Under the pieces are notes generated by a model, which saw only the letters and a list, made by a program, of their open reading frames with translations, was not told the DNA's origin and did no database searches. From an uncultured Lactobacillus sp. (GTDB lineage Bacteria > Bacillota > Bacilli > Lactobacillales > Lactobacillaceae): DNA of 64,000 nucleotides. Position 1 is the stretch's first letter. Every line of letters begins with the position of its first letter. Made by a program: the position numbers and the translations under genes. Below, piece by piece: positions 4,202-63,392 of the stretch. The DNA lies in the NCBI GenBank assembly GCA_910587695.1, contig CAJUNC010000011.1, positions 8,187 through 72,186 on the forward strand. Direction: 5' to 3'.

Positions 4202-5902
4202 ATGATGAAGGACTACAAACAATTAGTGGCTCAAGCAGTATATGCAGCAGTTGATGGCCAATTAAGTGAAGAAGCGATCGTTGAAAAAATCGAACAACCA
4301 AAAGATCTCAAGCTAGGGGACTATGCTTTTCCAGCATTCGTATTGGCTAAGGTCTTGCGTAAAGCACCACAAATGATCGCGCAAGAATTGGTCGAAAAGA
4401 TCGATACGACTAATTTTGAAAAAGTTGAAGCTGTGGGACCTTACGTAAACTTTTTCCTAGATAAAGCAGCCTTTAGTGAGGATGTTTTGCATGATGTTTT
4501 GACTAAACAAGAACATTTTGGGGATGCAACGACTGGAAATGGCCGCCAAGTTCCGATCGATATGTCTTCGCCTAATATCGCTAAGCCAATGTCGATGGGC
4601 CACTTGCGTTCGACTGTGATCGGTAATTCGATCGCACTTTTAATGGAAAAATCTGGTTATAAACCGGTCAAGATCAACCACTTAGGTGACTGGGGCACAC
4701 AATTTGGTAAATTGATGCGCGCTTATGAACTTTGGGGAAGTGAAGAAGAAGTTAAAAATGATCCGATCAACTCCTTATTAGGCTATTATGTGCGTTTCCA
4801 CAAAGAAGACGTCGAAAATCCTCAATTAGACGATGAAGCCCGTGATTGGTTCAAACGTTTAGAAGATGGAGACAAAGAAGCGACTCGTCTTTGGAAATGG
4901 TTCCGTGAAGAATCACTTAAAGCTTTCACGACTGTCTATGATCGTCTAGGGATCGAATTTGATTCTTACAACGGTGAAGCTTTCTACAACGATAAGATGG
5001 ATGAAGTAGTCGAGATCTTAGAAGAAAAGGGATTATTAAAAGAAAGTCAAGGAGCTCAGATCGTGGATCTAGATGCCTACGATCTCAATCCAGCTTTGAT
5101 CAAAAAGACTGACGGAGCTACTCTTTATATCACGCGGGATCTAGCAGCGGCTATGTATCGTAAACGTACTTATGACTTTGCTCAATCCTTGTACGTCGTT
5201 GGTAATGAACAATCAAATCACTTCAAGCAATTGAAGGCAGTTTTAAAAGAAATGGGTTATGATTGGTCCGACGATATCCATCACATTCCATTTGGCTTGA
5301 TCACACAAGGTGGTAAGAAACTTTCTACACGTTCAGGCCGTGTCATTTTGTTAGAAAAAGTTTTGGATGATGCGGTCGCTTTGGCTAAAGCACAGATCGA
5401 AGCTAAAAATCCTAGCTTAGCCAATAAAGATCAAGTTGCTGAAGAAGTCGGTGTTGGTGCCGTAGTCTTCCATGACCTTAAGAATGAACGTTTGAATAAC
5501 TTTGACTTTGATTTAGAAGAAGTTGTGCGTTTTGAAGGCGAAACTGGTCCGTATGTTCAATACTCACATGCTCGTGCAATGAGCATTTTACGTAAAGCGG
5601 GTGTGACCAAGATCGATCCGGCTAAGGCATATGCAGTAACAGATGAAAATGCTTGGGAAACTTTGCGTCTATTAGGTGAATTCCCAGAAACTGTTGCCCG
5701 TGCAGTCACAGAATATGAACCATCTGTGATCGCTAAGTATGCGATCCATTTGGCAAAAGCCTTCAACAAGTACTATGCGCATTCTAAGATCTTGATCGAA
5801 GATGACCAATTAGAAGCACGTTTAGCTTTAGTAGCTAGCGTAGCTGATGTCTTAAAAGAAGCATTGCGCCTCTTAGGGGTAGCAGCTCCAGACGAAATGT
5901 AA
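4202..5902 (+). CDS. argS: Arginine-tRNA ligase
   Basis: Class I aaRS signatures ([16 protein letters not shown] = HIGH region) and an anticodon-binding C-terminus. The start was moved to the ATG at 4202 behind the AAAGGAGGA RBS, because the tracked 4118 start lies inside the T-box terminator. Confidence 0.93.
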
Positions 5903-5911
5903 TTTTTTAAA

Positions 5912-5944
5912 AGTCGATCGGCACAGTCTGATCGGCTTTTTTTA
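5912..5944 (+). terminator. Rho-independent terminator of argS
   Basis: 10-bp stem agtcgatcgg / ctgatcggct followed by a T-run. Confidence 0.6.
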
Positions 5945-6041
5945 TGAAATCACCGTTAGAAATAATTTATTGATAAATAAGTTTTGCTCTAGTTATTTAG
6001 TGATAAACTTGGTGCAACAAACAATAAGGGGGAGTTTCACG

Positions 6042-6776
6042 GTGAAGATCAACAATTATACCAAAAAAGAGGATTATGTTTTTGATCTGATTCAAAAAAT
6101 CGGAAATTTATCAGAAAAAGATCAAGAAAAATTTCGCACATCTTGTCGAGCAATGGTTTATGACTACAACGACATGTTGATGTTCAATGGATTTAAGGGT
6201 GAATTTGCTTGCTTTTTAGTCAGTGGGTTGGTGGCAAGCCGTTATTACAATTTTGAAAGTGATAAAGACCAATATATGACGTTTTACAAGCAACACGAGT
6301 TATTCTATCCCTCGCTTGAGGTATTTGATGAAGATCATACTGAAGAAGAACTGATCGTATTTTCGGATAAAGCGATCGTTATTGTCATTCCCGAAGGTAT
6401 TATGCATGAATATCGAGATAAGTCGCCTTGTTTCAATGAAATGTTACGCGAGCAGATGGCTTATCAATTGCAAAAAGAACGGATCTATAATATTTATTGT
6501 AATCTATCCTCGACAAGAGAACGGATCAAGAATACACTTTTCTACTTAGCTGTGCTCTATGGGAAGGTCACAGATGAGAACTGGGTCCGTTTGCCTCGGC
6601 GGATCGACCAAAATGTTTTAGCTTCTTATACCCGTGCATCTACGTCACTAGTCAACATGATCATCAAAGAATACTGCAATCAAGGATTGGCTAAACGGGG
6701 ACGGCGCAAATTACTGCTAGATCGTAAGCTAGTGATGGATTATGTCGCGAATACAGGTTTTAATGAGTTTAATTAA
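6042..6776 (+). CDS. Crp/Fnr-family transcriptional regulator (ArcR-like)
   Basis: C-terminal HTH region TRERIKNTLFYLAVLYG...VLASYTRASTSLVNMIIKEY is typical of Crp/Fnr. A GTG at 6042 behind AAGGGGGAG is preferred over the TTG at 5970. Confidence 0.7.
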   Translation: MKINNYTKKEDYVFDLIQKIGNLSEKDQEKFRTSCRAMVYDYNDMLMFNGFKGEFACFLVSGLVASRYYNFESDKDQYMTFYKQHELFYPSLEVFDEDHTEEELIVFSDKAIVIVIPEGIMHEYRDKSPCFNEMLREQMAYQLQKERIYNIYCNLSSTRERIKNTLFYLAVLYGKVTDENWVRLPRRIDQNVLASYTRASTSLVNMIIKEYCNQGLAKRGRRKLLLDRKLVMDYVANTGFNEFN

Positions 6777-26235: not shown

Positions 26236-27966
26236 TTCAGGTAAGAGAATGATAGAGTCTAACAAACGTTTAGCATAACTGGTATTAGCATTGAAGTCGT
26301 GGTAGACACGTTTTGCTTCAGTGACATTATCGGTGATGATCCCATCTACATCCAAAAAGGCTGCATTTTTTAGATCTTCTTCGCTATTGACAGTCCAAGA
26401 ATAAACTTGTTTAAAGCTGATTTTAGCTTGGGTGACAAAGGAGTCGTTTAAAGTTGTTTTTTCCATCGTGTATCCATTAGCTGGTGTTTGTGGAAAGATG
26501 AAATTATACGGTAGGATATAGTAGGCATTTAGCGTAGGAGCATATTTTTTAGCACTAGTGATAACTTTATAGTCAAGTGATTGTAGCTCATGTTTATTTT
26601 GTTTGAGAGTAGCACCATATGTGTCAAAGAAATTCTTTAACATATTTTTTGAATCACGTCTGGTTGTCTTGATCTCGACTAATAGTTTTTGCTCGTATTG
26701 TTTGGCAACGCTCAAATACTCATCAAAACTAGGGATCTTAGCTTGATAGCCATTTTCGTGTACGGTCAAATCAGTTAGTTGTGCTAGTGTCAACTCTTGA
26801 GGGCTAGTATCAAGATCGGCGAGTTGTTTTAGATTTTCATCGTGCATGACGACAAATTTATGGTCTTTGGTTTCTTGGATATCGATCTCGATGTAATTTG
26901 GTTTGGCTTGGGCAGTCTTACGTAGAGCAGGGATCGTATTTTGGACACCGTTTTGGGCATCGACTCCACGATGTGAGATGATCAATGGTGTTTGGCCTAA
27001 ATGAACTAAATAGACCCCGTTACCTAAAAGAGCTCCAAGTGCAAATAAAGCAAACAATGGCTTAGCTATCTTGCTTAACCAACTTTTTTTAGTGCTTTTG
27101 TAGGTCGCTAAAGTAACGTTAGCTGGTAAAATGAGTTGCAAAAGAGCCACGCTAGCCCAGACAGAGATCAAAAATGAGCCGATCTGCAGTAAGGTGACAT
27201 TGATACTTCCACCAATAAGTGCACTCAACGGAGAAGTCTGATCAAGTCCAAGCTGGATCGAATATAAAATACCGATCAGCCCTAAGTTGGTGATAAGCGC
27301 AATAAGTGAGATCTTTAGGAGTTTTAGCGTATAAGCCCAAAACTTGTTTTTAGTCAGTTGCCAACTCTGCACGAGAGCTGTTTTGATCTTGACTTTTTCA
27401 AAAAGCATCAGGGGTAAAACAAAGAGCAAGCGGATGCTAAAAATAAAGATCGCTAAATAAAAAATACTGATCAAAGTTGCATAAAGGGGCTTTTGTAAGA
27501 GAAAATCCAAGATAAATTCAGGGATGACTACTTTACTCAAAAGCGGCGAATTAAAGAAGATCCCACTAAAGGGCACGATCAATAAGAAATAGCCGGCAAA
27601 AAAGAAGATCCCTAGTGGGTCGAGCTGGCGTAGTTGCTGGGCAGTGTCTTTTAAGATCGCTCGAAAGCTGAATTCATCTTGTCTTATCCGAACAACACCG
27701 TTTAGGATGAGTGCAAATTGTCCAAAGACACAAATGATCAAAATGACCAATTCCAAAAGTAGACCTAAGGTGATATAAGGATGGCTCGTAACGAGTGAAA
27801 GAGCATTGGTATAAGATAAATAGGGGATCGCACCTAAATTCAATAGTAGCGAAGCCCACGCATTAAAGAGAGGGATAACACCGATTTCAAGTGAAAGTTC
27901 GACCACTAAAAAGAGGATCAAATAATTTTTCCAATGTATGCTAAAATCGCGTTTTAAACACATCAT
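26233..27966 (-). CDS. Membrane-anchored glycerophosphodiester phosphodiesterase family protein
   Basis: Polytopic N-terminal half plus a C-terminal GDPD domain (ISHRG, EIDIQETKD, VMHD). Confidence 0.8.
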   Translation of the reverse strand: MMCLKRDFSIHWKNYLILFLVVELSLEIGVIPLFNAWASLLLNLGAIPYLSYTNALSLVTSHPYITLGLLLELVILIICVFGQFALILNGVVRIRQDEFSFRAILKDTAQQLRQLDPLGIFFFAGYFLLIVPFSGIFFNSPLLSKVVIPEFILDFLLQKPLYATLISIFYLAIFIFSIRLLFVLPLMLFEKVKIKTALVQSWQLTKNKFWAYTLKLLKISLIALITNLGLIGILYSIQLGLDQTSPLSALIGGSINVTLLQIGSFLISVWASVALLQLILPANVTLATYKSTKKSWLSKIAKPLFALFALGALLGNGVYLVHLGQTPLIISHRGVDAQNGVQNTIPALRKTAQAKPNYIEIDIQETKDHKFVVMHDENLKQLADLDTSPQELTLAQLTDLTVHENGYQAKIPSFDEYLSVAKQYEQKLLVEIKTTRRDSKNMLKNFFDTYGATLKQNKHELQSLDYKVITSAKKYAPTLNAYYILPYNFIFPQTPANGYTMEKTTLNDSFVTQAKISFKQVYSWTVNSEEDLKNAAFLDVDGIITDNVTEAKRVYHDFNANTSYAKRLLDSIILLPE

Positions 27967-28602: not shown

Positions 28603-29304
28603 ATGAATAACAATCCCGAAGTTTACGGTAATAGTAATGCCGGCTTGAATAGTTTTTTTACTAAGATGTATGGGTATATGAGTGCTGCAGTGGCAGTTTC
28701 GGCGCTAACGGCTTTCTTTGGTTCGTTTAGCCCAACTGTGATCCGATTTATGAGTAATCCGATCGCCTTATTTGCAGTCTTTGGGGTCCAATTAGTTTTG
28801 GCTTACTCCATGTCATCGCTTAAGTCACAACGTTCACCATTAGTCAGTGCTTTAGGTCTGTTTGTCTTTGCAGGCTTGGAAGGTCTACTCTTTAGTGGGA
28901 TCTTCATCGTCTATACTGCCCAAAACATTACAAGTGCTTTTGTTTCTGCCTTTGTGATGTTTGCTGTTTTATCCTTTATGGGATCAACAACTAAAAAAGA
29001 TCTCTCAGGGATCGGCCGTCAAGCTCGGGCTGCTTTGATCGCGTTTATCATCGTATCGTTGATCAACTTGTTCTTGCAAAGTCCAATGATCACTTATGTC
29101 TTTTCTTTTATCGGCCTAGTGATCTTTGCTGGCTTAACAGCTTGGGATACCCAACGTTTACGTCAAATGTATCTTCAAATGGGCTCACAAGTAAATGTTA
29201 ATAATTTGGCCTTGATGGGTGCTTTACAGCTCTACTTAGATTTTATCAACATCTTTATCTTCTTGTTGAATATCTTTACCGGTGCTGGTGGCAACCGCGA
29301 CTAG
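28603..29304 (+). CDS. Bax-inhibitor-1/YccA-family membrane protein
   Basis: Seven predicted TM helices and a typical C-terminal LYLDFINIF motif. ATG at 28603 behind AAGGAGA. Confidence 0.8.
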   Translation: MNNNPEVYGNSNAGLNSFFTKMYGYMSAAVAVSALTAFFGSFSPTVIRFMSNPIALFAVFGVQLVLAYSMSSLKSQRSPLVSALGLFVFAGLEGLLFSGIFIVYTAQNITSAFVSAFVMFAVLSFMGSTTKKDLSGIGRQARAALIAFIIVSLINLFLQSPMITYVFSFIGLVIFAGLTAWDTQRLRQMYLQMGSQVNVNNLALMGALQLYLDFINIFIFLLNIFTGAGGNRD

Positions 29305-56243: not shown

Positions 56244-57332
56244 TTGAAACGTGAAATCGGAATTTCGGTCTATCCAGACCACAGTGATCCTAAAAAAGAC
56301 CGTGAATATATCAAAAAGGCCGCTGAATTAGGCTATACGCGGATCTTTATGAGTATGCTCGAAGTAAAGGATAAAGCAAAGGCCAGCCAAAAGTTCAGTG
56401 AGATCATAGGGTATGCTAAAGACAAGGGCTTTGAAGTGATCTTAGATATTGCGCCAGCGATCTTTGATAAATTAGGCATTTCATACGATGATCTGAGCTT
56501 TTTTGCCAAATTAGGTGCTGATGGGATCAGACTAGATGAAGGATTTGATGGCAATAAAGAAGCAATGCTGAGTTATAACCCTGAAGGTCTAGCGATCGAG
56601 TTGAATATGAGCAATAATGTAGCGTATTTGGAAAATATCTTGTCATATGAAGCTAATGAACCCTTTATTTATGGATGTCATAATTTCTATCCGCAGGAAG
56701 GTTCGGCTTTGCCATATGATTTCTTTGTCAGTTGCAGTCAACGTTTCAAGCGTCATGGGATCAAAACTGCAGCTTTTGTGACAAGCCAAAGTGCTAAAGT
56801 GGGGCCGTGGGATGTCAATGATGGATTACCTACGCTTGAGATGCACCGCCACTTACCACTTGATCTGCAAGCACGTCACATGTTTGCTACGGGTCTGATC
56901 GATGTGGTGATCATCGGTAATGCCTATGCTTCAGATGAAGAATTAGAAGCACTAGCAGCGATCGATCGGTATAAATTGAGTTTAGGGATCGAATTTGTCG
57001 CCAATGCAACTGAGCTTGAGAAAAAGATCGTGACTGATCCCAAGCATTTTCGCCGTGGAGATATCACTGCCCAAGCGATCCGCTCGACGATGGTGCGGGT
57101 AAAATACGCCGATGAGCCTAATCCTGCGCATGATAACATGAGAGAATTTCAAGTAGGTGATGTTGTAGTTGGAAATGATGGCTTTGGTAAATATAAAAAT
57201 GAGTTGCAGATCGTTTTAGAACCACATCAAGATCCACGTAAGAATCTCGTAGGTAAGATCTTGCCAGAAGAATTGATATTACTTGATTTTGTCAAGCCTT
57301 GGACTAAATTTTGTTTTGTTCCCAAAAACTGA
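56244..57332 (+). CDS. DUF871 / MupG-family TIM-barrel 6-phospho-glycosidase-like protein
   Basis: GISVYP...YIKKAAELGYTRIFMSM and the overall length match DUF871, the family of the 6-phospho-N-acetylmuramidase MupG. Confidence 0.78.
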   Translation: MKREIGISVYPDHSDPKKDREYIKKAAELGYTRIFMSMLEVKDKAKASQKFSEIIGYAKDKGFEVILDIAPAIFDKLGISYDDLSFFAKLGADGIRLDEGFDGNKEAMLSYNPEGLAIELNMSNNVAYLENILSYEANEPFIYGCHNFYPQEGSALPYDFFVSCSQRFKRHGIKTAAFVTSQSAKVGPWDVNDGLPTLEMHRHLPLDLQARHMFATGLIDVVIIGNAYASDEELEALAAIDRYKLSLGIEFVANATELEKKIVTDPKHFRRGDITAQAIRSTMVRVKYADEPNPAHDNMREFQVGDVVVGNDGFGKYKNELQIVLEPHQDPRKNLVGKILPEELILLDFVKPWTKFCFVPKN

Positions 57333-57417
57333 GCGTTTGAGGTGCAAGTGATCGATAAACTATGTGTGAAATAGCTGGGAAGTAATAAAAATTTAAAATA
57401 TCTATAATATATTTATT

Positions 57418-57446
57418 GCCGTAGCTGATCTAGCTGCGGCTTTTTT
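57418..57446 (+). terminator. Rho-independent terminator of the PTS operon
   Basis: gccgtagct / agctgcggc stem followed by TTTTTT. Confidence 0.6.
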
Positions 57447-57480
57447 AAAAAAGGCGTCATTTTCAACTTTTGACGCCTAA
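57445..57480 (-). terminator. Hairpin terminator downstream of the recombinase gene (contains the left inverted repeat)
   Basis: aggcgtca / tgacgcct stem. The A-run on the plus strand is a T-run on the minus strand. Confidence 0.5.
57452..57468. repeat. Left copy of the 17-bp perfect inverted repeat AGGCGTCATTTTCAACT
   Basis: It is the exact reverse complement of 58167-58183. Confidence 0.9.
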
Positions 57481-57509
57481 TGATTCACCCCATATTATAC
57501 ATAATAAAG

Positions 57510-58106
57510 CTAGTCAAAATCAATTTTATCTAGGATGTTTTCACGGGTAGTTTGATCGATCCCTAGATAATGTAAAGTTGATTGTTGGCTACTATGATTT
57601 AATAATTGCATAACAAAACCGATATCAAAGTTAGTTTGTTGGTAGACAAAATACGCACCTGTTTTCCGCATTGTATGTGTACCTAAGTAATCGATACCTA
57701 AGAGATCGCCTGTTTTAGCCATGATCTTATAGTATTGTTTACGTGTCAAATGTTTGGCTGGGTCAGTAAAAGATGGGAAAAGCCAGACTGATTCGATCTG
57801 TTGGTCTTTTAACCAGAGGCGATAATCTTTAAGATCTTGTGTTACTGGCTTTAAATAAATAGTATTTGGCTTATTAGTTTTCTGATCATAGATATGAGTT
57901 CTCATCTTTACTTGTCCATTTTTGTTATAAACATCTGAATATTTTAGTGATAAAACATCACTTACTCGTAATAATGTAGCTTTACCTACTTGAAAAATAG
58001 TATAGTTACGACGCCCTGCTCGGAAATGCTCAAGTAGGGTCTTTTTTACTTGAGAAAGTACGATTTTATTTTTGATCGGTTGTACAGTATAGAATTTGTG
58101 TTCCAT
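57510..58106 (-). CDS. Short tyrosine recombinase (catalytic domain only, 198 aa)
   Basis: Catalytic residues are recognisable: R in ATLLRVSDVL, HxxR in GTHTMRKTG, H in LLNHSS and the Y nucleophile in TLHYLG. There is no N-terminal core-binding domain. Confidence 0.85.
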   Translation of the reverse strand: MEHKFYTVQPIKNKIVLSQVKKTLLEHFRAGRRNYTIFQVGKATLLRVSDVLSLKYSDVYNKNGQVKMRTHIYDQKTNKPNTIYLKPVTQDLKDYRLWLKDQQIESVWLFPSFTDPAKHLTRKQYYKIMAKTGDLLGIDYLGTHTMRKTGAYFVYQQTNFDIGFVMQLLNHSSQQSTLHYLGIDQTTRENILDKIDFD

Positions 58107-58166
58107 AGCTCAGTCCCCCTCATTCATAGGATTTAGATAGTTATCGTACCATTTTTATAACCATTA

Positions 58167-58183
58167 GTTGAAAATGACGCCTG
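58167..58183. repeat. Right copy of the 17-bp perfect inverted repeat (AGTTGAAAATGACGCCT)
   Basis: It is the exact reverse complement of 57452-57468. Confidence 0.9.
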
Positions 58184-58197
58184 TAATAAGTATTAAA
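58169..58197 (+). promoter_or_regulatory. Putative promoter of the RM-like operon (TTGAAA-17-TATTAA), with the -35 inside the right inverted repeat
   Basis: Hexamers at 58169-58174 and 58192-58197 with a 17-nt spacer. Confidence 0.3.
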
Positions 58198-58227
58198 TGA
58201 TGATCTAAAAGTGATGGAGGAACTTAA

Positions 58228-59103
58228 GTGGATGATTTTTATGAGAGAAATAGTATACGAGAAAAATTCCCGAAGATCTTAGATATTTTATTACTAGATA
58301 GAACTAGATCAACTACTAGATCTCATCAAAATATAATTTGGGCAAATAGTAATTATCGAAGTAAAGGTAAAGCATATTCTCAAACTTCTCAGATAAAATC
58401 GAGTCTAATAACGGGAAAAATGAAAGACGTTATTAGATCAAGAGCATTTAAATCAAAAGATATTCAAAAAGCTAGGACAAAGCAAAAGGCTGAGGTTTTT
58501 ACACCTACTTGGGTGATCAAACAACAGATCGATGAAGTAAGTACTGCTCAGCGAGATGATCTAGATAGTCATATAAAAATAAAGTGGTTAGAAATAGCTT
58601 GTGGTGAAGCGCCTTATATCACTACTAGATATGATATGAAAACAGGAAAATTTATTGAAGTATCTAAACGAGTAGGTGTCTTAGATCGAAAACTGAAGAT
58701 GGTAAATGAAAAGATAGCTGGATTTTTAGCTTGGCAAAATGCTGTTGAATTGGCATATAAAACGATTTATGGCTTTGAGTGGAATGGTGATTCATTGCTA
58801 CTTGCTCGTGAAAATTTACTGTATACATATATCGAAAATTATGTATTTAAGTGGCAAGTTTATCCTGATGAAAAATCTCTTGAGAAGATAGCAGTCATTA
58901 TCAGCTATAACATCTTTCAAATGGATGGTCTGAAATATATTATTCCACTTTCTGAAAAGAAAGAAAAAATTCACAGTGGTCAGCTATCATTATTCGATGA
59001 TCCAGAGCCAACACAATGGATCATTAAAAAAGGGATCAGGGTAAAAGTTATGAACTGGGAAAAAAATAAAATGGAATTTTTTGATAAAGGGATCGGTGAA
59101 TAA
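58228..59103 (+). CDS. N6-adenine-methyltransferase-like protein lacking a recognisable (D/N)PP(Y/F) motif
   Basis: AEVFTPTWVIKQ resembles motif X (xxFxTP). WLEIACGEAPYI resembles a degenerate motif I (EPxCGxGxF). YGFEWNGDSLLLAREN resembles motif II/III. The position where NPPY is expected reads IISYNIFQMD. GTG start 6 nt after GGAGGA. Confidence 0.6.
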   Translation: MDDFYERNSIREKFPKILDILLLDRTRSTTRSHQNIIWANSNYRSKGKAYSQTSQIKSSLITGKMKDVIRSRAFKSKDIQKARTKQKAEVFTPTWVIKQQIDEVSTAQRDDLDSHIKIKWLEIACGEAPYITTRYDMKTGKFIEVSKRVGVLDRKLKMVNEKIAGFLAWQNAVELAYKTIYGFEWNGDSLLLARENLLYTYIENYVFKWQVYPDEKSLEKIAVIISYNIFQMDGLKYIIPLSEKKEKIHSGQLSLFDDPEPTQWIIKKGIRVKVMNWEKNKMEFFDKGIGE

Positions 59104-59104
59104 G

Positions 59105-62100
59105 ATGGACAAGACAAAAGTGCAAACGACAAAGACGATATATCCACAAATTTACGCTTATATTTTACCTGAGATCAAACGTAAACGAGGATGGATAAAA
59201 ATCGGGTACACTGAAAAGAAAAATGTAGATGAGAGAATACAAGAACAAACCAAGACAGCAGATGTGGAATATCAAAAACTTTGGTCAGCTCCTGCAAAAT
59301 TCAATCAAAAAGATAGGTGGTTCAAAGACCATCAATTTCATGCATATTTAGAAAAATATAAGCATATAAGAAAACAAACTGGACATGAATGGTTTTATTA
59401 CAACGGGACCCCGACTAGATCTTGGGAAGATTACAAAGATTACATCGATCTGGATCTTGAACAAGCAAAAGAAGAATTAACATACACTCTTAGGTCTGAG
59501 CAAAAAAGAGCCGTTGAAAAGACATTAAAATATGCAAAAGAGCATCCACAAGGAGAATTTTTGTGGAATGCTAAACCAAGATTTGGAAAGACATTGACCA
59601 CATATGATCTGGCTTTGAGATTAAAAGCAAAGACTGTTTTAGTGGTGACCAATCGACCGGCGATAGCAACGTCATGGTTTGATGATTTTGAAAGATTTAT
59701 TGCCTGGCAGACAGATTATAAATTTATTTCCAACTCAAGTAGTTTAAAACATCGAGCGATCATGAGTAGAGAGGACTATCTTGCTAGTTTGGGGGATGAA
59801 AAAGGCGCTCAGATAACATTTGTTTCCCTTCAGGATCTAAAAGGGGCTAAAAGTTTTGGGGGTGTCCATGAAAAACTTGATTGGATCGCAGATCTAAAAT
59901 GGGATATGTTAGTGATAGATGAAAGTCATGAAGGCATTGCTACGTTAAAAACAGATATTGCTTTTGATAATATCAAGCGCAAGTTCACGTTGTATTTGTC
60001 AGGGACTCCTTTTAAGGCACTCGCATCTGGAAAGTTTAAAGACGATCAGATCTACAATTGGACATATGCCGATGAACAAAAAGCAAAAGCAAACTGGCAA
60101 GATGTTGAGCAAAATAATCCATATTCAGATCTGCCTCGGCTGAATCTTTTTTCATATCAAATGAGCCCGATGATCACAGAAAAAATTGAGCAAGGGGCAC
60201 AAATAGATGGTAAAAATATGGATTATGCTTTTGATTTAAATGAGTTCTTTGCAACTAAAGATAATGGAGATCTTGTCTATAAAAAACAAGTGCTGAAATG
60301 GTTAGATACTCTGGCAAAAAACGAAAAGTACCCATTTTCAACGCCTGAATTGCGGACCGAGTTAAAGCACACATTTTGGATCTTGGATCGGGTAGCGAGT
60401 GCTAAAGCTTTAATGAAACTACTAAAAAAGCATGAAGTATTTAAAGATTATAAGATCGTTTTGGCAGCTGGTGATGGTAAAGTGACAGACGACCAAAAAA
60501 TAAATGAGAGCTCCTTAACTAGGGTAAAAGAAGCTATTCGTAAAAATGATAAAACGATCACATTATCAGTGGGACAATTAACAACTGGGATAACTGTACC
60601 AGAGTGGACTGCTGTATTGATGCTCTCGAATATGAGATCACCTAGTCTTTATATGCAGGCCGCTTTTAGGGCACAAAATGCGTGGCGTTACGAAGAAAAT
60701 GGTTTGTCCAAACGTAAAGAAAATGCCTATGTCTTTGATTTTTCACCAGAACGTACGTTGATGATCTATGATGAATTTGCTAACAACTTATCTAATAGAT
60801 CATCTGAGGTTTTAGATGTTGATAAACGCCAAAGGAAGATCAGACAATTATTGAATTTCTTTCCTGTGATCGCTGAAGATAGTACAGGTAAGATGACAGA
60901 ACTCGATGCAAAACAGGTGCTGACGATGCCTAAAGTACTGAAAGCAAAAGAAGTTGTAAAACGAGGCTTTATGTCCAATTTCTTGTTTAAAAATATATCG
61001 GGTATTTTTTCTTCCCCAGAGGCTAAAGAGATCTTAGAAGACCTAAATCCACTACCTAAAAATAAAAATGTTCCTCAAAATAATCGTGTAAAAGTCGACA
61101 CAAAAGAAATTGAGTTGGATGAAAATGGAGCAGTAAAGATTCGTCCGGAGATAGTCATTGGTGAAAATAAAGCACACTTTGGAGAAAAGGTATATAAAGA
61201 AATGGAAGAAGAGATCGAGAATTCGGAAAGTGCCAAACTCCAAACGTTAGCTAGTCAGATATTTAAAAAGCGTACATTAGAAGCAACTAAAGCTCTAGCA
61301 AAAGAAAAGGGATTGACGACTAAACAAGCAGAGAAGATCACAAACTTAGGAGCTAAAGCAGTGGCGCGTGAGGTAGAAGAGATCCAAATAAAAAATAATA
61401 TCAGAAAAAATAAGGTGAAAAAAGAATTTGAATTACGCAAAGCTGAGGCACAGCTGGATAGCAAAGCCTTGCAAAAGATCGAAGAGCAGTTACAACAAAA
61501 AATTCAAAAAGTAGAAAGCGAAGTTGTTACACAAGTTAAAGAGACTTTACAAAAGTATACGCTAAATTCTACTGAGAAGATCATGCAAAAGGTGCAAAAA
61601 AAAGATAAACAGCAAGTAGAAGACGATGTGCGCTCACGTTTGCGCGGTTTTGCTAGAACGATCCCTTCATTTTTGATGGCTTATGGGACAGAGAATACCA
61701 CATTAGCTAATTTTGATAAAAATATCTCAGATACAGTATTCAAGGAAGTGACAGGGATCTCACTTGAACAATTTAGAGTATTACGGGATAAGTATCGCTT
61801 TTTTGACGAAATCGTGTTTGATGAGTCGATCCAAGCTTTTTTAGCTAAGAGAAAGGAGTTAGCTAACTACTTTGATGAAAATTTAAAGGAAGATATCTTT
61901 AGCTATATTCCCCCACAAAAGACTAATCAGATCTTTACGCCAAAAGAGACAGTCAAACTGATGGTAGCTGAATTGCAAAAAGAAGAGCCAAACATTTTTA
62001 GTGATCCTGATAAAACATTTGCGGATCTATATATGAAATCTGGGTCATATATTACTGAGATCGTCAAACGCTTATATATTGGGTTGGCAGATGTAATACC

Positions 62101-62338
62101 AGATCAAAACAAGCGGATCAAGCATATCTTAGAAGAGCAAGTTTATGGTTTTGCTCCAACGGAGATCATTTATCGGATAGCTCACAATTATATCTTTGGT
62201 TTTTATGATGAAGTTGATAAGATCGATGATTCACATATCGTTTTACTAGATACGACTTCATTTGCTTGCAATGAAGCTAGCGGTAGTTTAGCTGAAAAAT
62301 GTGATGAATTATTTGGAGGAAGTAAAGATGAAATTTGA
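59105..62338 (+). CDS. Fusion protein: T5orf172/GIY-YIG-like head, SF2 helicase (type III-res/DEAH-like), K/E-rich helical spacer, methyltransferase N-lobe (motifs X, I, II/III)
   Basis: Head: YAYILPE...GWIKIGYTE...DERI...GHEWFY. Helicase: motif I AKPRFGKT (59570-59593), motif II MLVIDESHEG (about 59903-59935), motif III LSGTP and a motif VI-like QAAFRAQN. The C-terminus has IFTPKETVKLMV (motif X), FADLYMKSGSY (motif I-like) and VYGFAPTEI. The ORF stops before any NPPY. Confidence 0.75.
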   Translation: MDKTKVQTTKTIYPQIYAYILPEIKRKRGWIKIGYTEKKNVDERIQEQTKTADVEYQKLWSAPAKFNQKDRWFKDHQFHAYLEKYKHIRKQTGHEWFYYNGTPTRSWEDYKDYIDLDLEQAKEELTYTLRSEQKRAVEKTLKYAKEHPQGEFLWNAKPRFGKTLTTYDLALRLKAKTVLVVTNRPAIATSWFDDFERFIAWQTDYKFISNSSSLKHRAIMSREDYLASLGDEKGAQITFVSLQDLKGAKSFGGVHEKLDWIADLKWDMLVIDESHEGIATLKTDIAFDNIKRKFTLYLSGTPFKALASGKFKDDQIYNWTYADEQKAKANWQDVEQNNPYSDLPRLNLFSYQMSPMITEKIEQGAQIDGKNMDYAFDLNEFFATKDNGDLVYKKQVLKWLDTLAKNEKYPFSTPELRTELKHTFWILDRVASAKALMKLLKKHEVFKDYKIVLAAGDGKVTDDQKINESSLTRVKEAIRKNDKTITLSVGQLTTGITVPEWTAVLMLSNMRSPSLYMQAAFRAQNAWRYEENGLSKRKENAYVFDFSPERTLMIYDEFANNLSNRSSEVLDVDKRQRKIRQLLNFFPVIAEDSTGKMTELDAKQVLTMPKVLKAKEVVKRGFMSNFLFKNISGIFSSPEAKEILEDLNPLPKNKNVPQNNRVKVDTKEIELDENGAVKIRPEIVIGENKAHFGEKVYKEMEEEIENSESAKLQTLASQIFKKRTLEATKALAKEKGLTTKQAEKITNLGAKAVAREVEEIQIKNNIRKNKVKKEFELRKAEAQLDSKALQKIEEQLQQKIQKVESEVVTQVKETLQKYTLNSTEKIMQKVQKKDKQQVEDDVRSRLRGFARTIPSFLMAYGTENTTLANFDKNISDTVFKEVTGISLEQFRVLRDKYRFFDEIVFDESIQAFLAKRKELANYFDENLKEDIFSYIPPQKTNQIFTPKETVKLMVAELQKEEPNIFSDPDKTFADLYMKSGSYITEIVKRLYIGLADVIPDQNKRIKHILEEQVYGFAPTEIIYRIAHNYIFGFYDEVDKIDDSHIVLLDTTSFACNEASGSLAEKCDELFGGSKDEI

Positions 62339-63392
62339 TATAGTTATTGGAAATCCGCCTTATCAAGAAAATGACAATGGAAAGCGCGATGATGGAGCAG
62401 CTAATGCATCTGCAAGCCCGATATATAACCATTTCTTTTATTTAGCAAGAGAAGTGGCACTAAAAAAAGTGAATCTTATTTTTCCAGCAAGATGGCTCAA
62501 TGGGGCAGGAAAAGGCTTAGGTGATTTTAGGCGAGATATGTTACAAGATCAACATATTAGATCCATGTCAGTATTTAAAAATGCAAGTATGTTATTTCCA
62601 AATACCGATATAAAAGGTGGAGTCTTGTATTTGACTTATGACAAAGAATATATCGGACCTGCCGATATCAGTGTTATCGATCATGACAAACAGCGATACG
62701 AGTTTAAGAGTTATTTAAATTCGGCTGGTTCAGGCGTATTTATTCCTTATGGTGAATTGGTAAGCATTTTTGAAAAGGTCTCGAAAGTAGCAGATATAGA
62801 TAAAAATAACATTCAATCTATAACTTCAGGATTAAAACCATATGGATTAAGAACAGATTTTTTTAAAGATCCATATAAATATAATCTCCCACCAATTTTT
62901 GGTACACCACAAAGCGCAGATGATATTGAAATTATAGGTTTGGATAGAATGAAAAGGATGAGTAGATATATATCAAAAGATTATCCACTTCCTAAAGGTA
63001 AAGAAACTATTGCTGAGTGGAAAGTATTTGGACCGTACGCCTATGGTTCAGGAGAATTTGGCGAATGCGTATCAGAGTTACTTATAGGGAGACCTGGTCA
63101 AATTTCGACCGAAACGTTCTTAGTGTTTGGACCGTTTGATTCGGAATATGAAGCAAACGCATTTAAAAAATATTTTTATACCAAATTTTTTAGAGCATTG
63201 GTGGGAATTTTAAAAACTACTCAGCATAGTACTACAACGTATGGCTTTGTACCACTTCAAGACTTTACCAAAAATTCAGATATAGATTGGTCGCTGAGTA
63301 TTTCAAAGATCGATCAACAATTATATGAAAAATATGGACTAGATCAAGAAGAGGTCGATTTCATCGAAAGTAAGGTCAGATCTATGGAATAG
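62328..63392 (+). CDS. Methyltransferase C-lobe starting at motif IV (FDIVIGNPPYQ) plus a specificity (TRD)-like C-terminal domain; Eco57I-type
   Basis: MKFDIVIGNPPYQ lies at the extreme N-terminus. The ATG at 62328 sits 7 nt after GGAGGA and overlaps the upstream ORF by 11 nt. The C-terminal LYEKYGLDQEEVDFIE tail is typical of Eco57I/TaqI-like TRD ends. Confidence 0.75.
   Translation: MKFDIVIGNPPYQENDNGKRDDGAANASASPIYNHFFYLAREVALKKVNLIFPARWLNGAGKGLGDFRRDMLQDQHIRSMSVFKNASMLFPNTDIKGGVLYLTYDKEYIGPADISVIDHDKQRYEFKSYLNSAGSGVFIPYGELVSIFEKVSKVADIDKNNIQSITSGLKPYGLRTDFFKDPYKYNLPPIFGTPQSADDIEIIGLDRMKRMSRYISKDYPLPKGKETIAEWKVFGPYAYGSGEFGECVSELLIGRPGQISTETFLVFGPFDSEYEANAFKKYFYTKFFRALVGILKTTQHSTTTYGFVPLQDFTKNSDIDWSLSISKIDQQLYEKYGLDQEEVDFIESKVRSME

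Follow-up and report, generated by a model that had tools for sequence, protein, structure and literature searches.

The Hin system of Salmonella (hixL, hixR and fljBA) is a flagellin switch in which a serine invertase acts with the help of Fis and an enhancer. Phase-variable restriction-modification (RM) systems are known by two other routes, namely simple-sequence repeats in Type III and some Type IIG systems, and the shuffling of hsdS in Type I systems. In this study we describe a 697-bp segment bounded by 17-bp inverted repeats in a stretch of 64,000 nucleotides from an uncultured Lactobacillus sp. (contig CAJUNC010000011.1, positions 8,187 to 72,186; this whole stretch is called the window, and its numbering is used throughout). 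The segment carries the gene of a small tyrosine recombinase and lies directly upstream of a three-gene RM operon (open reading frames ORF1 to ORF3). Public sequencing runs show that the segment inverts in natural populations, and we consider it fairly probable that it works as a Hin-like promoter-inversion ON/OFF switch for the RM operon, of which the window holds the OFF state.

An earlier note on this locus, made from the sequence, had likened the arrangement to fim-type or hsdS-type phase-variation switches. The comparison now leans toward Hin, since a conserved promoter-like element and the recombinase gene both lie inside the segment. As in the Hin system, a recombinase gene and a (here putative) outward promoter would share an invertible segment of about 1 kb with short inverted repeats, one orientation driving the adjacent operon and the other turning the promoter away. 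The two differ in the enzyme, which in the window is a tyrosine recombinase (PF00589), and in the cargo, which is an RM operon instead of a flagellin gene; moreover the hairpin of the window, built partly from the repeat, appears to act as a terminator only in the OFF orientation. The fimS element of Escherichia coli with FimB and FimE offers a likeness in its tyrosine recombinases of about 200 amino acids (aa) without N-terminal core-binding domain, and in a promoter-bearing element with short inverted repeats under ON/OFF control. However, the 314-bp element contains neither fimB nor fimE while the segment of the window includes its recombinase gene, and the window protein falls short of the FimB/FimE protein models.

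The Type I hsdS shufflons (SpnIII with PsrA/CreX in Streptococcus pneumoniae, and those of Listeria and L. salivarius) likewise place a tyrosine recombinase gene in an RM locus, some of the inversions turning this gene around as well, and they make restriction and methylation phase-variable. Their inversions recombine repeats inside hsdS coding sequences and so alter specificity (PMC7672463, PMC4948785). In the window, on the other hand, the repeats lie between genes and their recombination rearranges no coding sequence; the RM system there is Type IIG/ISP-like, and ON/OFF control is predicted instead of a change of specificity. No hsdS or hsdM domain was found at the locus and the repeats do not fall in an hsdS target-recognition coding sequence; a reading of the locus as the remnant of an hsdS shufflon was rejected because nothing hsdS-like is present. 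In the flgB switch of Clostridioides difficile (RecV), one orientation terminates the leader transcript after initiation in a Rho-dependent manner, with the recombinase encoded elsewhere and the promoter outside the element (PMC5386303, PMC7446863). Control at the leader transcript is shared with the model for the window, whereas the predicted terminator of the window is intrinsic, assembled from the repeat and a U-tract encoded in the flank, and the recombinase gene and the putative promoter both lie within the element. In full-text searches of the literature we found, for lactobacilli, no description of such a cassette or of a Type IIG/ISP-like RM operon under the control of promoter inversion, and no account of promoter inversion switching a whole helicase-methyltransferase RM operon through a tyrosine recombinase encoded inside the invertible element.

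Inversion between the two repeats

The left inverted repeat, IR-L, occupies 57452-57468 on the + strand (AGGCGTCATTTTCAACT), and the right one, IR-R, is its exact reverse complement at 58166-58182 on the − strand. The arms are 697 bp apart (731 bp with the arms counted), and the invertible segment between them, 57469-58165, contains only a 198-aa Phage_integrase-family gene (57510-58106, − strand) and its flanks. The earlier note had already recognized the perfect 17-bp repeats and the single gene that they enclose; its right arm, given as 58167-58183, is shifted by one base, and its 698-bp spacing is likewise one too many.

The same note had suggested that sequencing data be inspected for both orientations, and both are there. 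Public runs were examined as Logan unitigs and contigs mapped to the region, hence as contigs throughout and not as raw reads. Run X12, apparently a single-strain run, covers the locus at about 200x with no other variant over 2.1 kb and with flanks that include an unbranched 7.9-kb unitig, and its graph breaks exactly at both repeats. All four junction types are present in X12, each as a unitig of 43 nt, which is the length predicted for k = 31 across a 17-nt repeat. The reference-form junctions have depths of 150.4 (left) and 125 (right). The inverted-left junction, made of the left flank, the repeat and the reverse complement of 58153-58165, has a depth of 61.5, and the inverted-right junction, made of the reverse complement of 58183-58195, the repeat and 57469-57481, a depth of 55. 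The inverted fraction is 29% at one end and 31% at the other, an agreement that fits a reciprocal conservative inversion.

Three runs of one rat-gut study, P4 (X10, X11, and X16), contain the inverted form only, with zero sequence differences from the window, and contigs of 2667 nt (X10) and 4707 nt (X11) carry exactly 57469-58165 inverted. Seven runs (X1-X5, X7, and X17) show the window orientation only, while inverted junction unitigs also occur in X9, X13, X14, X15, X18, X19, X20, and X43. In a second strain lineage, whose repeat is 18 nt long, both junction types are found in X29, X33, and X40 (depths of 5.2 vs. 4.7 in X40). Mixed orientations are seen in 12 runs in total and precise inversion junctions in at least 15. 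The segment truly inverts, its breakpoints lie within the 17-bp repeats, both orientations exist in natural populations, and the frequency of inversion varies strongly between samples. As had been foreseen, what is flipped relative to the RM operon is the recombinase gene itself.

The two orientations might instead be fixed strain variants left by rare past inversions, in which case the mixtures within runs would be mixtures of strains and there would be no phase variation within a clone. Orientation is indeed uniform within studies, all reference in the mouse-gut study P1 (up to 450x) and all inverted in the rat-gut study P4, and the majority of the mixed runs come from metagenomes in which several strain variants coexist. 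This explanation is nevertheless hard to fit to X12, which is about 30% inverted at matching ratios at both ends although no other variant is seen over 2.1 kb and its long flanks are unbranched. Sequence-identical reference and inverted forms also occur in different samples, two strain lineages each have both forms, and every lineage has an intact recombinase gene with perfect repeats (the arms of L003 match at 96%). We therefore rate fixed variants as improbable.

A cassette that is either inverted or excised had been envisaged at the outset. Only the first of these has been borne out, by breakpoints within the repeats in public runs and by the opposite assembly of relatives; deletion or circle junctions were seen in none of the runs examined, and excision is not expected because inverted repeats predict inversion only. 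A reading of the cassette as an excisable or a mobile element was rejected for the same absence of products and for the linkage of the recombinase to the RM operon across lineages.

The module of recombinase and RM operon recurs in related genomes, with recombinase identities of 96% (L027/L028), 84% (L003/L004/L006), and 77% (L007). The recombinase gene is divergent from the operon in the window, L027, L028, and L007, and it is assembled co-directionally, opposite to the window, in L003, L004, and L006, which keep the same PTS-mupG/dps synteny as the window. The genomic neighbors of L007 differ from those of the window, and the cassette and the RM operon are linked in three lineages and two genomic contexts. 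Several contigs stop at the repeats, which is where assembly is expected to break off if a segment flips. The core of the repeat varies by lineage (TTTTCAACT, TTTTTACCCAGTGAC, and TTTTGAACCAAT, the repeats being AGGCGTCATTTTCAACT(T), AGGCGTCATTTTTACCCAGTGAC, and AGGCGTCATTTTGAACCAAT) and the arms match within each locus, at 96% in L003 and exactly over a 20-nt core in L007. Repeats that differ between lineages and yet match within a locus indicate concerted evolution of both arms.

The statistics of the repeat are modest and by themselves only suggestive. The 17-mer AGGCGTCATTTTCAACT has two exact copies in the 64-kb window, namely the two arms, which form the longest exact inverted repeat in the window among arms at most 1 kb apart. 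In mononucleotide shuffles, 65 of 200 gave an exact inverted repeat of at least 14 nt at a spacing of 200-1500 nt, a 17-mer being about 60-fold rarer. Such counts would lend something to the idea that the repeat arose by chance, or by duplication of part of a terminator, and does not recombine, but the precise inversion junctions in the public runs refute that idea, to which we attach practically no probability; it is this read evidence and not the shuffles that settles the reality of the repeat. When up to three mismatches are allowed, one further match to the 17-mer appears where 0.27 are expected by chance. It is AGCCATCATTTCCAACT, at 57167-57183 on the − strand inside the mupG-like gene, identical to the repeat at 14 of 17 positions; no junctions involving this site were seen in the runs, and the match is probably due to chance. 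A 16-nt exact inverted repeat, GAAGATCCCACTAAAG, at 27556-27571 and 28892-28907 within two coding regions 1.3 kb apart, is also probably a chance occurrence in view of the shuffle control.

Two further observations concern other sequences at the same place. In a metatranscriptome contig of X42 (57360 to 58171), the 810 nt that lie between the end of mupG and the outer hairpin arm in the window are replaced by 519 unrelated letters, and in X2 a branch of about 1% of the depth carries foreign sequence ending at 58170, the same place as the insert in X42. Both may come from a strain variant in which a shorter or different insert replaces the recombinase cassette.

A putative outward promoter and a proposed split terminator

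The outward element of the model, P_out, is a putative promoter at 57494-57523 on the − strand, with a -35 of TTGATT (57523-57518), an 18-nt spacer, and a -10 of TATAAT (57499-57494). It overlaps the stop codon of the recombinase gene, points outward through IR-L, and scores 10/12, joint top in the region scanned. The sequence TGTATAAT after the recombinase stop is invariant in four lineages while neighboring bases vary (alignment A2). An analogous site is the sole 10/12 site in L003, L023, and L001, and the counterpart in Liquorilactobacillus keeps the placement with a different sequence (TTGACT-17-GATAAT or AATAAT). Conservation of this kind suggests that P_out may be active as a promoter. 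At the other end of the segment lies P_rec, the putative promoter of the recombinase (58143-58151, − strand), with an extended -10 of TGGTACGAT; the motif TGnTA(C/T)(G/T)AT followed by AAC is kept in the window, L027, L003, and L007 (alignment A3), consistent with promoter function. P_rec fits the pattern TGnTAnnAT, whereas an extended -10 reading of P_out was rejected, because its TG abuts TATAAT without the one-base gap.

Downstream of P_out, a hairpin with its U-tract spans 57447-57479 on the − strand. Its stem pairs 57472-57479 with 57452-57459, so that the distal repeat supplies half of the structure, with IR-L as outer arm and loop. The folding free energy is -11.6 kcal/mol, and the arms AGGCGTCA and TGACGCCT are invariant while the loop is variable. 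The position of the left repeat within a hairpin downstream of the recombinase agrees with the earlier note. The U-tract itself lies outside the repeat: in the window orientation, the hairpin on the recombinase strand is followed by UUUUU (57451-57447) from the fixed left flank, and in the inverted form by GUAAUAAG, without U-tract, and then by the ribosome-binding site and start of ORF1. L003, a natural co-directional locus, has the homologous arrangement with GUAAACAA after the hairpin. The hairpin is thus predicted to be an intrinsic terminator in the window orientation only. Back to back with it stands the intrinsic terminator of the upstream mupG-like gene (57418-57446, + strand), which belongs to the fixed flank, outside the switch.

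On the operon side, a fixed leader of 45 nt (58183-58227, + strand) with the ribosome-binding site GGAGGA runs from IR-R to the GTG start of ORF1. Between the repeat and the start codon of the cargo there are 45 nt in the window, about 38 in L003, 26 in L007, and about 27 in L023, a distance so short that there is no room for a complete fixed promoter. The promoter scan, which demands T at position 6 of the -10, found no + strand promoter-like site in 57976-58228, that is, upstream of ORF1 in the window orientation.

Taken together, the segment 57469-58165 would be a self-contained switch, in which the small tyrosine recombinase recombines the two 17-bp repeats and flips its own gene. In the window orientation the recombinase gene would diverge from the operon and P_out would face away from it into the hairpin, where stem and flank-supplied U-tract would end its transcripts; given that the RM operon lacks a complete promoter of its own, this orientation would be the OFF state. 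After inversion, the recombinase gene would be co-directional with the operon, and transcripts from P_out, together with read-through from the recombinase promoter, would cross the hairpin, now without U-tract, and continue into ORF1-ORF3, the presumed ON state. The read-out would depend on orientation because the hairpin comes from the recombination site and the U-tract from one fixed flank only.

RNA offers a partial view of this junction. In RNA-Seq cDNA runs of a related strain (X36, X37, and X39) a unitig reads through recombinase sense sequence, stop codon, repeat, and ORF1 sense sequence, which means that RNA crosses the junction in the co-directional form; read as contigs, these runs give neither transcription starts nor strand, nor a comparison between orientations. 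They bear on the possibility that the polarity is opposite, with the divergent orientation of the window expressing the operon and the co-directional one silencing or attenuating it, for example by the hairpin or by bound recombinase blocking transcription. Divergence is what most assemblies show (the window, L027, L028, and L007) as well as the most abundant populations (X2-X4), and it would be the natural default if RM is normally on. Yet no promoter-like site faces ORF1 in the divergent form, the 26 nt of L007 leave no room for one, the RNA-Seq unitigs of the co-directional form pass from the recombinase gene across the repeat and on into ORF1, and in that form the hairpin has no U-tract. 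An opposite polarity is accordingly held to be quite unlikely.

Several observations weigh against a promoter-inversion switch. In X2, whose recombinase gene is identical, no minority orientation appears at about 450x, so that either switching is not constitutively frequent or selection is strong, and the strain mixtures in most of the mixed-orientation metagenomes have been mentioned above. The homologous cassette of Liquorilactobacillus satsumensis (L001), which has imperfect repeats, gave no inverted junctions at 147x, 22x, and 315x. Promoter-like hexamers are common in AT-rich DNA of this region (7 found vs. 6.2 expected), and the P_out of L007 has a poor -35 spacing and received no call in the scan. 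Contig depths cannot yield transcription starts, and the link from orientation to operon RNA or methylation is one that we infer; in addition, ORF1 of the RNA-Seq strain is broken by an insertion-sequence (IS)-like insertion, which clouds any reading of expression.

There is also, in this strain, a possible hybrid promoter, with TTGAAA (58168-58173) in IR-R and, after 17 nt, TATTAA (58191-58196) in the fixed leader. The earlier note had named the TTGAAA as the putative -35 of the operon promoter. If this hybrid drove the operon in both orientations, the inversion would be real but without regulatory effect and the cassette a relic or a selfish recombinase module, which would sit well with a recombinase family that is otherwise borne on plasmids or integrative elements without flanking repeats. 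However, the proposed promoter is not conserved: its -10 reads AATTAG in L027, 58197 is polymorphic in the reads, the corresponding positions in L003 and L007 match poorly, and the transcription start of L007 would come to lie within its ribosome-binding site. The site also fails the scan rule for position 6 of the -10, and the linkage of the cassette to the RM operon persists across the three lineages and two genomic contexts named above. An inversion of no consequence thus seems unlikely to us, if somewhat less so than the opposite polarity, and the ON/OFF switch remains the reading that we favor.

Two minor features of the same region may be added. An inward promoter-like site on the + strand (57470-57498; TTGACG-17-TATTAT, 10/12), whose -35 lies in the inner hairpin arm, would yield RNA antisense to the recombinase gene; it scores 9/12 in L003 and is not evident in L007. 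The break in ORF1 of X36, X37, and X39 falls at 58294-58296, where the unitigs leave loose ends CCTGAATTGTCAAATTAAGTTAGAAAAA and TATTTTTCTAACTTAATTTTACAAACTGCG that are imperfect inverted copies of each other and where the flanks overlap by 3 bp, a pattern that resembles an IS insertion, with duplication of a 3-bp target, in a co-directional strain.

Should the mechanism hold, gut lactobacilli would toggle a defense barrier together with a genome-wide methylation mark, which would matter for their sensitivity to phages, for the uptake of DNA, for strain engineering, and possibly for epigenetic gene regulation. The mouse study with reference forms throughout (predicted OFF) and the rat study with inverted forms throughout (predicted ON) would then amount to a natural experiment.

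The recombinase and its relatives

The 198-aa protein consists of a catalytic domain only, without N-terminal core-binding domain. It matches Pfam PF00589 at 67.4 bits (cut-off 27.1) over residues 27-182, which places it in the tyrosine recombinase superfamily as the earlier note had proposed. In an alignment of 10 sequences (A1), R47, K76/K79, H144, R147, H171, and Y180 are invariant, their catalytic roles being assigned from motif context (LLRVSD, HTMRKTG, NHS, and LHYLG) and not from structure. Against the FimB/FimE-type invertase models NF007370 and NF007371 it scores 28.1 and 22.8 bits (cut-offs 221 and 222) and stands outside that subfamily. The Xer models (XerC/XerD/XerS/XerA) are matched in their C-terminal half only, at best with 53.1 bits where XerA requires 220, the protein having 198 aa. 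Searched by sequence, the PDB gave no match to the recombinase, ORF1, or ORF2. The family consists of proteins of 195-199 aa with 1663 matches. The recombinase of the window is presumably the enzyme that performs the inversion.

Among about 100 homologue loci surveyed, flanking repeats are found only in the clade of the window and in a Liquorilactobacillus clade (L001, L023, and L025); in the remaining loci the longest inverted match is 6-10 nt, equal to the direct-repeat control. Outside the clade, the closest relatives in sequence (63-68% identity) are annotated as “integrase/recombinase, plasmid associated” and come from lactobacilli, enterococci, Listeria, and Brochothrix. They have the same length and the same catalytic residues as the recombinase of the window, but they reside on plasmids, in translational coupling with an Mrr_N gene, or within small integrative elements that contain a DUF3173 gene and an integrase, and they lack flanking inverted repeats.

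The integrative elements are represented by L011-L016, L020-L022, and L026, where the relative sits between the gene of an uncharacterized protein and the pair of DUF3173 and integrase; the uncharacterized neighbor has 566-630 aa in L011-L016 and L020-L022 and is a 259-aa peptidase-like protein in L026. On the L. reuteri plasmids L017-L019 the relative is translationally coupled to an Mrr_N protein of 119 aa, and genes of Type ISP or Type III RM systems lie nearby. The homologous cassettes of Liquorilactobacillus (L001 at 5856-6670, L023 at 4878-5695, and L025) keep the order of repeat, recombinase, outward promoter-like site, and repeat, and diverge from large surface-protein genes, encoding either a FIVAR protein of 808 aa or two proteins of 282 and 930 aa. 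We do not claim that these cassettes are active switches.

It is quite possible, though we put it forward tentatively, that the element is a phase-variation cassette that is portable and complete in itself, with a minimal tyrosine recombinase, its promoter, and an outward promoter set between two repeats. Such a cassette would derive from recombinases of plasmids or integrative elements and could be placed before unrelated cargo; through a split terminator it would switch restriction ON or OFF for the whole system and make the methylomes of gut populations heterogeneous. The cargo would then be the Type IIG/ISP-like RM operon in rodent-gut lactobacilli and the large surface-protein genes in Liquorilactobacillus. 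With a length of 731 bp and apparent self-sufficiency, the cassette would be of interest as a switch part for Gram-positive bacteria.

The RM operon

The first gene of the operon, ORF1 (58228-59103, + strand), encodes a methyltransferase-like protein of 291 aa that matches the PADLOC model MTase_II PDLC03390 (E = 3e-75) and has more than 7600 homologues in a family annotated as “restriction endonuclease.” ORF2 (59081-62338, + strand; 1085 aa by longest open reading frame) combines a T5orf172 nuclease-like head, a ResIII superfamily 2 (SF2) helicase, and the N-terminal part of a methyltransferase, and ORF3 (62301-63392, + strand; 363 aa by longest open reading frame) supplies the Eco57I-family N6-adenine methyltransferase half with its NPPY motif and a C-terminal region. 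The domain scores are 20.4 bits for T5orf172, which is marginal, 60.7 for ResIII, and 74.1 for Eco57I. Together, ORF2 and ORF3 match REase_MTase_IIG of PADLOC, a Type IIG model of 1359 positions. Judged by these domain matches the cargo is a Type IIG/Type ISP-like RM system, with nuclease, SF2 helicase, and gamma-class N6-adenine methyltransferase modules all present.

Homologous systems occur without the recombinase. That of L. murinus comprises a 309-aa protein and a fused one of 1424 aa, and the small gene in front of them encodes 81 aa with no domain match, whereas an HTH_26 gene precedes the system of E. faecalis; the recombinase cassette occupies the position that a small upstream gene takes in these other members of the RM family. 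The split between the overlapping ORF2 and ORF3 (59081-63392) is kept in L003 and L007, while the L. murinus homologue is a single fused protein of 1424 aa (L107-L109 were also compared). Since it is common to L003 and L007, the split is an inherited arrangement and not a fresh frameshift.

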